From Hormiphora californensis (lineage: Eukaryota; Animalia; Ctenophora), in assembly GCA_020137815.1 (NCBI GenBank), contig CM035354.1, forward strand, positions 7,192,001-7,256,000: a DNA stretch of 64,000 nt. Direction: 5' to 3'. The notes under the pieces were generated by a model. That model saw nothing but the letters and a program-made list of their open reading frames with translations. It ran no database searches and was not told where the DNA came from. The translations under genes and the position numbers were made by a program. Each line of letters starts with the position of its first letter. Position 1 is the first letter of the stretch. Of this stretch, positions 56,601-59,600 are shown in pieces.

Positions 56601-59600
56601 AGGAGGCGGAAAAATTCCCAAACGAGTGCGAAACTACTTGTATGTTGCTCAAGGAGGGTAGGTGTCCTCATGGCATAACTGGGAAGAAATCTGCTGACGG
56701 TAAGGATAGGTGTGACTTTTTTCATCCGAAACTATGTGTTCCCTGGGGGAAGAAAGGAGAGAAAGGTTGTGCCAAGGGTCCGGAATGTAGGAAACTACAC
56801 AAGGCTATCTGTAGCAGAGCAATAGAATCCAAGGAATGTTTTGAAAAGAAATGTTACCTTGTTCACCCCAAAGGAACCAACAGGCGAAAGCCAAGGGACC
56901 AGGTGGGGCAAAAGAGAGATAGAAGAAAGAGTGAACGTGGACTTTCCCAGGAAGGAGGACGAACGGAAAAGCCGTCCTTCGCAACGGGGCAAAACAAGTC
57001 CAATGATAAGAAGCCTGGCAGTTCGCTGGGACGAAACGGTAAACCAGGCGGTAAACCAAACGCAAAATTCACTCCAGCTAAAAGTCAGGGTGATTTTTTA
57101 GCTATCAAATCCCTTTTGGAAAAGCTTCAGAAGGGAATGTCGGACATAAAAGGGGATCAGACACAAATGCAGAAAACCCTGAAAACTCTGAGAGCAGATC
57201 AAGGAAAGAGCTGCTCAATGGGGAGGTCTCGGGTCGGATCCGGCCACGGGTGCTGCAGTCAGGCGTGTTATTAAACGCCCAATCCTGCAACCCAAGTGCA
57301 AGGAGTAAATGTGCTTGGAAGTTGCAGTGCCTCAGGGAGGATGTGGAGTCAATCCCAGGAGAGGTACCCTTCATAGCTGTGACAGAAACATGGCTTAAAC
57401 CATACGTGGAAAACTTACAAATTCTAAATGGATGGGAGAAGTACAGGGTCTACCGTTGTGATCGGAGATACAGGACAGGGGGCGGTGTTATGCTGCTGAC
57501 GTCATTTGATCTACCGATAGACGAGCATGTAGCTTTGGATAAAGACAGCTGTCAGCTGTTAATGTGCTCCTCAAGCCCAAGCAAGTGGGTATTTGGGGTA
57601 CTGTACAGATCACCATCCGCTCCAGTTAGTGATTTTAGGGCGTGCCTGGAGGTAGCCAGAAATTTCATCGAACAGAGGCCAGATCATGTTGTCTGTCTTA
57701 TGGGAGATTTTAATGTACCTGAGATCGCTTGGAATCCACCTGAGGCAAACCCAAGAACAGCAAATAGTGATGCACTGCTTAGCTTCACTGAGGACACGCT
57801 GCTTTCTCAATATATTGATGTACCATCGAGAGGCAGCAGCTACTTGGATTTGGTTTTCAGCAACTCTGAGACACTGGTTAACCGTGTGAGGAGCAAGGAG
57901 ACTAGGTTGTCGGACCACAACCTATTGGAGTTTGGTGTGACTCGGGATCCGTGCTCTGCAGCCAGGGAAACTGTGCCACCTCAGTTTGCTGCTGATGAGT
58001 TTCGTTCACTGGATATGTACAAAGCAGATACAGAGGCAATATGTGAGGCGGTAAAAAAGGTTGATTGGGAAGCTGTATTCGGTAAGTGCACCACGGAAGA
58101 GCTTCCTCGAGTATTCAGGGATATATTGTTCCAGATTGCTCAGATTCATGCACCTAGGAAGAAACCGAGAAGGGGGAGGCCAAAGCTTGTCAGAAAACTT
58201 TCTCGGAAAAAAAGAGCTGCGAAAGGGCGTCTCGCACTGCTCTTGGAGAAAAAGGATACTCCAATCAGTCAGATTGAAGCTCTCCAAAAGAGGATCGATG
58301 TGCTTTATGGGGAAATCCGGGATGCTATCCTGGATGAGAATATAAAGCAGGAAAAACTGGCAGTTGAAAAGATCAAAACAAACGCCAAGTACTTCTACAG
58401 CTACGCTAAGCGTTTCGCTGGTGACAGCAACAGTATCTCGGCGTTAACTGGAGAATCTGGCGAATTGATCACTGATAAGAAAGAAATTGTGGAAGCTTTG
58501 TCTAGGCAATTCAAGGCTGTGTTCAGTGACCCGGAGGAAGCTGACTTAAACACAGGACACGATATCACAGTTTGCGAGTCAATAACACCTGGTGACAATG
58601 ATGTTGACTTTACAGTGAAAGATATCCTAGATGCTATCAAGGAGATGAAACCGGATGCAGCTCCTGGTCCGGACGGAATACCGGCCATACTGCTGAAAAG
58701 CTGCGCTGAAGCGGTGGCACACCCACTGTACCTGATGTGGACTAGGTCGCTAGGGGAAGGTATTGTTCCATCATCGTCCAAGGTGTCGCTTGTCACCCCC
58801 CTCTACAAGAAGGGTAGCAGGTCCTCAGCTGCAAATTATCGCCCTGTCTCTCTGACCGATCATACCATTAAGGTCTTCGAGAGAGTCGTACGGAAAAAGC
58901 TAGTGAACCATTTTGAGAAAAATGAGCTTTTTAACGACATTCAACATGGATTTAGGCGTGGGAGAAGTTGCCTCACCCAGCTCCTAGATCACTTCGACAA
59001 CATTCATAGTAATGCACTCGATGGCATGGAAACTGACTCTGTGTACCTTGATTACGCTAAGGCGTTTGACCGAGTTGATCATAACATCTTGATTAGAAAG
59101 CTTAGAAGCTATAAGGTACATGAAGGTCTCGTGACATGGATCCAGTCTTTCCTGGAAGGAAGAGTGCAGAGAGTCACGGTGGATGGATGTCAGTCGGAGC
59201 CTGTACATGTTAAGAGCGGAGTTCCCCAAGGGTCAGTTTTGGGACCGATGCTCTTTTTAATATATCTGAATGATATCACAACGGTTGTGTCAGGAAGTAC
59301 ACTGCGGTGCTTTGCAGATGACACACGAATCATGAAGAGTATTGGAGGAGAAATGGATATGAAAATACTCCAACGGGACCTGGATTCGGTTACCGAGTGG
59401 TCACTGAGAAATAACATGAAACTGCATACGGATAAGTTTGAATTCCTACTGCATGGCGTTTCACGTGACCATCTCATGCACCATCTCCCTTTTACTGCTG
59501 ATATCTTGAGCTACAGCACTTCAGCAGGGCTGCTGAAACCTATGTCCTCGGTTAAGGATTTGGGCGTGCTTGTTCATTCTGATCTAACCTGGTCCGGTCA

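Follow-up and report, generated by a model that had tools for sequence, protein, structure and literature searches.

How does a long interspersed nuclear element (LINE) produce its enzyme when the first ATG of the second open reading frame (ORF2) lies inside the endonuclease domain? The question is raised by an intact LINE copy in a stretch of 64,000 nucleotides (nt) from the ctenophore Hormiphora californensis (GCA_020137815.1, contig CM035354.1, positions 7,192,001 to 7,256,000; hereafter the window, with all positions counted from its first letter). The element carries ORF1 followed by ORF2 in the -1 frame, and the two frames overlap by 181 nt. Based on the comparison of the junction with divergent relatives, we consider it highly probable that ORF2 is reached by a -1 ribosomal frameshift at a conserved slippery heptamer, which would yield an ORF1-ORF2 fusion of 1447 amino acids (aa). 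This had been proposed by a sequence-only reading of the window, and the conservation of the heptamer, its phase and its replacement by other heptamers now argue for it.

The ORF1-ORF2 junction and its conservation

The following features, all on the + strand, define the junction.

55916..57274, +: ORF1, an open reading frame of 452 aa that ends at TAA
56639..56866, +: tandem Cys/His zinc fingers of ORF1 (C242-H317), with Cys/His columns invariant in 27 ORF1 proteins
57089..57202, +: ORF1 C-terminal helix (residues 392-429, secondary structure of the model), starting at the slip site
57091..57093, +: TGA closing the -1 (ORF2) frame just before the slip site
57094..57100, +: slippery heptamer U_UUU_UUA, the predicted -1 shift site, in ORF1 phase as GAT TTT TTA (Phe394-Leu395)
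57101..57109, +: spacer of 9 nt between heptamer and stem-loop
57110..57136, +: stem-loop of 11 base pairs found by folding, a candidate stimulator in the window family only
57250..57252, +: GTG in the ORF2 frame, 8 codons upstream of the endonuclease Asn, a candidate start for reinitiation
57094..60258, +: ORF2 frame, 1054 codons, -1 relative to ORF1

On recheck, the positions given in the sequence-only reading for the TGA, the heptamer, the spacer, the stem-loop, the frame overlap and the first ATG were all correct. Within ORF2, an in-frame ATG first occurs at 57490, downstream of the endonuclease motifs LNAQS and VTETW, and the codon of the first endonuclease Asn (57274-57276) overlaps the ORF1 stop. 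The context of that stop is TAT TAA ACG, without the UAAUG of the SART1 type. At 57272-57276, the Leu and Asn codons of that first motif share letters with the ORF1 TAA, an arrangement typical of the subgroup of the window (offset 1 in 9 of 32 families). A public contig with a word depth of 279, which may come from the source sample, is identical to the window over 56600-57800 (0 differences, 0 gaps), and a second one under another species label (X8), although differing at 69 positions, has no indel at the slip site. Therefore, the run of six T is not a homopolymer or assembly error. Among the differences listed for X8, none falls between 57064 and 57102. As a separate observation, the G after the heptamer creates a TAG stop in the +1/-2 frame (57098-57101, and in relatives as well), which might end -2 slips at once. 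Also, a DNA contig (X6) joins unrelated sequence at 57100 and an RNA-type ORF1 contig (X16) ends at 57098, both being single cases.

ORF1 consists of an N-terminal helical domain, a PHD-like Cys/His domain and tandem CCCH-type fingers, followed by a basic disordered linker, a C-terminal amphipathic helix and a short tail. In the Pfam search, the ORF1 proteins of 27 relatives matched zf-CCCH in 10 cases and PHD in 5, with no RRM, CCHC or esterase domain, and the ORF1 of the window itself gave no match. Its structure model has a mean predicted local distance difference test (pLDDT) score of 69, and a Foldseek comparison with the PDB returned nothing at E<=0.001, the best rows being CPSF30 CCCH fingers at E values of 0.36-1.7. 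In the ORF2 frame, a low-complexity linker of ~60 aa precedes an APE endonuclease and a reverse transcriptase (RT, 58813-59487). This order (PF14529, PF03372 and PF00078 above the cut-off) is that of an APE-type element without long terminal repeats (non-LTR), and a repeat tail at 60274-60297, found in place of a long terminal repeat (LTR) end, identifies it as a LINE. We take the element to be CR1-like on its general features rather than by placement against named reference elements.

To collect relatives, we used a pattern that describes only the last zinc finger of ORF1 (window match at 56798-56877), so that the sampling was blind to the junction. The pattern matched 93 loci in metagenome_contigs, 13 of them with flanks of only ~300 nt, and one in viral_contigs. 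By eye, 10 of the 94 loci were set aside as chance matches; the single match in viral_contigs was of this kind, leaving no true relative there. Grouping the remaining 84 loci with the window at 75% nucleotide identity yielded 61 families, of which eight were dropped (four with a broken ORF1 tail and four whose contig ends early) and 53, including the window, were kept. Three of the dropped families (L039, L048 and L073) still show the heptamer.

Conservation of the heptamer in its phase was a check set beforehand, and the site proved to be either kept at the nucleotide level or replaced by another slippery heptamer. TTTTTTA occurs between the fingers and the ORF1 stop in 42 of the 53 families, all 42 times in the slippery phase, and never in the other two phases of the 53 ORF1 tails (21,666 nt); in ORF2 sequence, it was found twice in 70,758 nt. 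Elsewhere in the same elements, only 2 of 137 control Phe-Leu pairs are coded by TTTTTTA. The codon before the heptamer is CAT, TCT, GAT, AAT, GCT, GTT, AGT or CTT, thus covering seven amino acids with an invariable final T. The T run is exactly six long in 39 of 41 families, and the first spacer base is a G, also in 39 of 41, over five amino acids (E, D, G, A and V). At the HIV site, the following GGG matters for slippage according to PMC5009743, which fits the retention of this G. The other 11 families have A_AAA_AAC in five cases (L024, L052, L061, L066 and L069), G_GAU_UUU in two (L005 and L088), G_GUU_UUU in two (L050 and L081), G_UUU_UUC in L074 and U_UUA_AAC in the broken copy L026; six non-canonical or broken cases were singled out by eye after the first count. 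PMC5009743 lists A_AAA_AAC and U_UUA_AAC as well as G_GAU_UUU, together with sites starting with G_GU, G_GA and G_UU, as natural shift sites.

The frame layout follows the same scheme. An overlap of 40 codons or more with ORF1 is seen for the -1 frame in 50 of 53 families (median 83) and for the +1 frame in 8 of 53 (median 19). The three exceptions in the -1 frame are L026 (broken), L059 (a copy with both frames fused) and L084 (contig end). Upstream of the site, the -1 frame holds 57 stops in the last 460 codons and after it none, although this zero is partly given by construction. A quick tree of 44 endonuclease rows separated two deep lineages that share the ORF1 type and the junction, and one of them holds both U_UUU_UUA and A_AAA_AAC families. 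This suggests that ORF1 and the shift site moved together as a module, or that they predate the split of the endonuclease lineages. The distant lineage, whose endonuclease is of the WNIRRGL type, shares the CCCH ORF1 tail and the -1 junction and comprises L018, L020, L024, L050, L052, L061 and L069.

Points against frameshifting and other routes to ORF2

Several results weigh against frameshifting, or against parts of it. The families share ancestry, so the 53 are not 53 independent events. The conservation counts are thus not independent; we regard the heptamer swaps as the strongest sign that slippage itself may be under selection. The A_AAA_AAC sites do not lie at the alignable Phe-Leu position. 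In addition, the host trans-splices, and 39 of 41 sites read TTTTTTAG, similar to a 3' splice acceptor. Regarding start codons, an ATG lies within 25 codons before the first endonuclease Asn in 8 of 32 families (this Asn could be placed automatically in 32 of the 51 families tried), a UAAUG stop-start occurs in one of the 32 (L035), and in a sister ctenophore family an ATG takes the place of the GTG at 57250 (in X8, loose-end letters at 57271). Relatives with an ATG upstream of the APE motifs had been named in the sequence-only reading as a finding that would speak against it, and such an ATG is indeed present in part of the relatives, namely the families with a close ATG and the sister family; 19 of 32 families have no in-frame ATG between the site and the Asn.

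The stimulatory structure is a further weak point. The stem-loop of the window is real, with a folding energy of -13.9 kcal/mol, a z-score of -3.26 in a 37-nt window (-1.67 at 80 nt and -1.44 at 141 nt) and a rank within the top 1.1% of the 40-nt windows of the element, and it lies where it had been described. It is, however, not a family feature. Although the fold 5-8 nt past the site is in the top decile of the windows of its own element in 19 of 46 families (Wilcoxon p 0.004, with families that are not independent), it is weaker than -5 kcal/mol in 18 of 46. A z-score of -2 or lower was obtained in 11 of 46 families; adjacent windows gave 1, 3 and 0 such families, and a placement at -95 nt gave 7 of 46. 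The consensus fold of 11 aligned junctions has no pairs and no covariation. Pairing of the slip region with the 3' end of the same element, tried in 14 elements, exceeded all cross-pairs in one and was random overall.

In the alternative of termination-reinitiation, ribosomes would terminate on the TAA of ORF1 and begin again close by, at an AUG or a near-cognate codon, in the window the GTG at 57250, the CTG at 57253 or the GTG at 57265. Such coupling has published precedents in the UAAUG of SART1 and in the AUG-independent ORF2 of L1, and the position of the ORF1 stop on the endonuclease Asn codon in the subgroup of the window would suit it, as would the UAAUG of L035, the close ATG in 8 of 32 families and the ATG of the sister family, at whose position the N-terminus of a protein (P0004) also begins. 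What it leaves unexplained is why, in 50 of 53 families, the -1 frame has stayed open over 40-226 codons as far upstream as a slippery heptamer, as well as the nucleotide-level conservation, the heptamer swaps and the 19 of 32 families with no ATG at all; moreover, an NTG at 57250 is the automatic result of the Gly-Cys codons of ORF1. We therefore judge it improbable as the route to ORF2, although it may act alongside frameshifting in some families. Very improbable, in our view, is a role of TTTTTTAG as an acceptor, whereby cis-splicing from a donor in ORF1 or trans-splicing of the leader would make a separate ORF2 message. The G kept after the heptamer over five amino acids would be accounted for, the host does trans-splice, the copy itself bears a leader (see below), and the RNA-type contig X16 stops at 57098. 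Yet in none of 46 families does the AUG next downstream of the site belong to the ORF2 frame, and therefore a trans-spliced message would not give the ORF2 protein. An AG is missing from the A_AAA_AAC families and from two TTTTTTA-T families, splicing demands neither a -1 relation nor the slippery phase, and slippage at the HIV site is itself known to depend on the bases that follow (PMC5009743). Within the RNA-type contigs, whose cover of the junction is thin and thus gives evidence neither way, no joint was seen at 57101, and one contig (X18, 57014-57164, depth 2.3) crosses the site unspliced.

A frame fusion could also arise if RNA polymerase slipped on the T (or A) run and added one base in some of the transcripts. 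Every common site does contain a six-base homopolymer, and L059 is a copy with both frames fused. A run of six T, the exact length in 39 of 41 families, is nonetheless short for polymerase slippage and invariably keeps the codon phase, the G_GAU_UUU families have only four T, and the frame of L059 changes downstream of an unchanged site, all of which makes this explanation extremely improbable. As for an assembly error, or a chance product of a conserved Phe-Leu motif in the protein, a homopolymer-rich stretch near 19000-20300 of the window appears to be of low quality and ORF1 keeps Phe-Leu at the start of the helix. But an error is refuted by the identical contig of depth 279 and the absence of an indel under the other species label, and chance by the phase counts and the rarity of TTTTTTA among the control pairs, so the probability left for either is minute.

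The predicted fusion and its place among known systems

Frameshifting at the heptamer, the reading that we favour, would proceed as follows. In a minority of ribosomes, tRNA-Phe and tRNA-Leu on UUU UUA would re-pair at UUU UUU and translation would continue in the -1 frame, while the non-shifting ribosomes would finish ORF1 with its helix and tail. The hairpin likely raises the shift rate in the window family, and families without one would use the heptamer and the following G, or another stimulator. The product would join the PHD-like domain and CCCH fingers, via a low-complexity linker of 50-270 aa, to the endonuclease and RT, and it would lose helix 392-429 of ORF1. The earlier estimate of a ~1450-aa fusion, in which the enzyme replaces the ORF1 C-terminal helix, agrees with the computed 1447 aa and with the modelled start of this helix at the site. 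Such a fusion would set a ratio like that of Gag to Gag-Pol and tie the enzyme to the predicted RNA-binding fingers of ORF1. Among proteins of 1025-2925 aa, no long in-frame ORF1-ORF2 fusion was found, which is weak evidence.

Some copies are unusual at or near this junction. L059 has ORF1 and ORF2 in one frame, open for 1129 codons past the zinc-finger motif with the heptamer intact; its frame change lies downstream of the site (codons 61-133 after the motif) and might be a mutation, an assembly error or a constitutive fusion. Likewise, in P0011 an ORF1-like tail is in frame with the endonuclease. L035 combines a slippery site and a 63-codon overlap with its UAAUG, placed three codons before the endonuclease Asn. 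In L002 and L036, a long extension at the N-terminus of ORF1 contains a hydrophobic stretch and, after it, ESNPGP or ETNPGP, a sequence that is 2A-like when compared with the motif form given in PMC3894237.

The closest parallel is retroviral gag-pol. The two systems share X_XXY_YYZ heptamers (U_UUU_UUA of HIV-1 and the A_AAA_AAC type; PMC5009743), the phase, with a structural, RNA-binding zinc-finger frame followed by the enzyme frame in -1, the G after UUA and, in the window, a 3' hairpin. Unlike gag-pol, the element is non-LTR with APE and RT, and its candidate stimulator is not conserved; nor does it have a protease, so that the fusion would presumably stay uncleaved. Within non-LTR elements, a -1 frameshift is stated to be required for ORF2 in the APE-type TRE5-A and TRE3-A of Dictyostelium (legend in PMC5911963), a statement that comes in that legend without a heptamer or an assay. 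Those elements differ in targeting tRNA genes, in a C-terminal zinc finger in ORF2, in an oligo(A) tail and in their ORF1. This stated precedent qualifies the sequence-only reading, which had named termination-reinitiation as the route of studied LINEs, with L1 and SART1 as examples. SART1 (UAAUG) and mammalian L1 resemble the present element as bicistronic LINE RNAs with low ORF2 output, and SART1 also has a downstream structure; however, their ORF2 protein is a separate one that starts near or after the ORF1 stop, whereas here the frames overlap for 60 codons from the slippery site. Frameshifting has also been suggested in the non-LTR groups 1-2 of Paramecium (+1 shift or reinitiation, from consensus sequences) and in HeT-A of Drosophila (within gag only).

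With the CR1 group (CR1, L2, Crack and Daphne), the element has in common an ORF2 with APE and RT, a short 3' untranslated region (UTR) with a repeat tail and a PHD-like domain in ORF1. The passages available of PMC4120745 describe ORF1 types I-IV (RRM and CCHC, transposase 22, PHD, and esterase), and tandem CCCH fingers with a C-terminal helix are not among these. In the portions of main text available, PMC13343379 contains neither "CCCH" nor "frameshift", and PMC4120745 does not contain "frameshift". A search of the literature on LINE ORF2 translation, frameshifting and ORF1 types, which covered few subscription papers and no Repbase Reports, did not find the signal in these elements. Translation of LINE ORF2 is treated as an open question in the parts available of PMC3894237 and PMC3708506, where reinitiation, internal ribosome entry sites and 2A are named and frameshifting is not.

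For a large group of invertebrate LINEs, a conserved and swappable -1 site offers a sharp and testable answer to how ORF2 is translated. If true, the enzyme would be made as a fusion with the RNA-binding fingers of ORF1, a direct route to cis preference, and a non-LTR element would have a stoichiometry like that of Gag-Pol. Where ORF2 has been annotated from the downstream ATG, which cuts off the endonuclease, a correction would be due, and the families without local structure would constitute a new group of natural shift signals. We lean slightly towards a broader proposal, in which a large group of LINEs of aquatic animals, with a PHD/CCCH ORF1 and two endonuclease lineages, would express its enzyme only as a -1 fusion. 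The signal would travel with the ORF1 module and swap heptamers, often without local structure and perhaps stimulated by the CCCH fingers of the ORF1 protein, and in the ctenophore the element RNA would be capped by a spliced leader that is copied into insertions.

The spliced leader, the host intron and neighbouring sequence

The copy is bounded by the following features.

55782..60754, -: RUVBL/TIP49 host intron with GT..AG ends and TIP49 Pfam matches on both flanking exons
Inside this intron, +: intact LINE copy with ORF1 and ORF2, in the opposite sense to the host gene
55829..55869, +: ctenophore trans-spliced leader of 41 nt, followed by CTCG and not by a GT donor
55870..55915, +: 5' UTR of 46 nt between the leader and the first ORF1 ATG
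60259..60297, +: short 3' UTR and repeat tail, the tail ending in AAGTAAGT

The 41 nt at 55829-55869 are identical to the final 41 nt of the ctenophore leader as printed in PMC8527503, and they occur once in the window. As expected of a spliced leader, they are matched by many RNA-type contigs whose 3' continuations are unrelated to each other. The join between leader and element is also present in another contig (X12, 45 differences in 681 nt; that X12 is DNA is a guess), whose loose end contains the tail repeat unit too. Given the leader at its 5' end, the copy therefore probably derives from a trans-spliced RNA, a reading that we prefer to the alternative that the element inserted behind an orphan leader. 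Dinoflagellates are known to have retrogenes tagged with a leader. In our literature search, no LINE with a copied spliced leader turned up. Since GTAAGT follows the element, a location where exon meets intron in a leader RNA gene was weighed as well, and was set aside because relatives (L012, L028, L037, L058 and L080) end in the same AAGTAAGT tail.

An Rfam search over 55700-57500 gave no match at E<=1. Elsewhere in the window, a second LINE fragment, truncated at its 5' end, lies at 48719-49996 on the - strand, with 46% identity to ORF2 across 370 aa, and 2447-7636 on the + strand is taken up by an LTR retrotransposon of the Gypsy type, with frames for gag (CCHC) and for RT-RNaseH-integrase. 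The homopolymer-rich stretch at 19000-20300 resembles low-quality long-read sequence. Finally, the RUVBL gene is adjoined by ANAPC2, a long single frame at 61560-63395 on the - strand.

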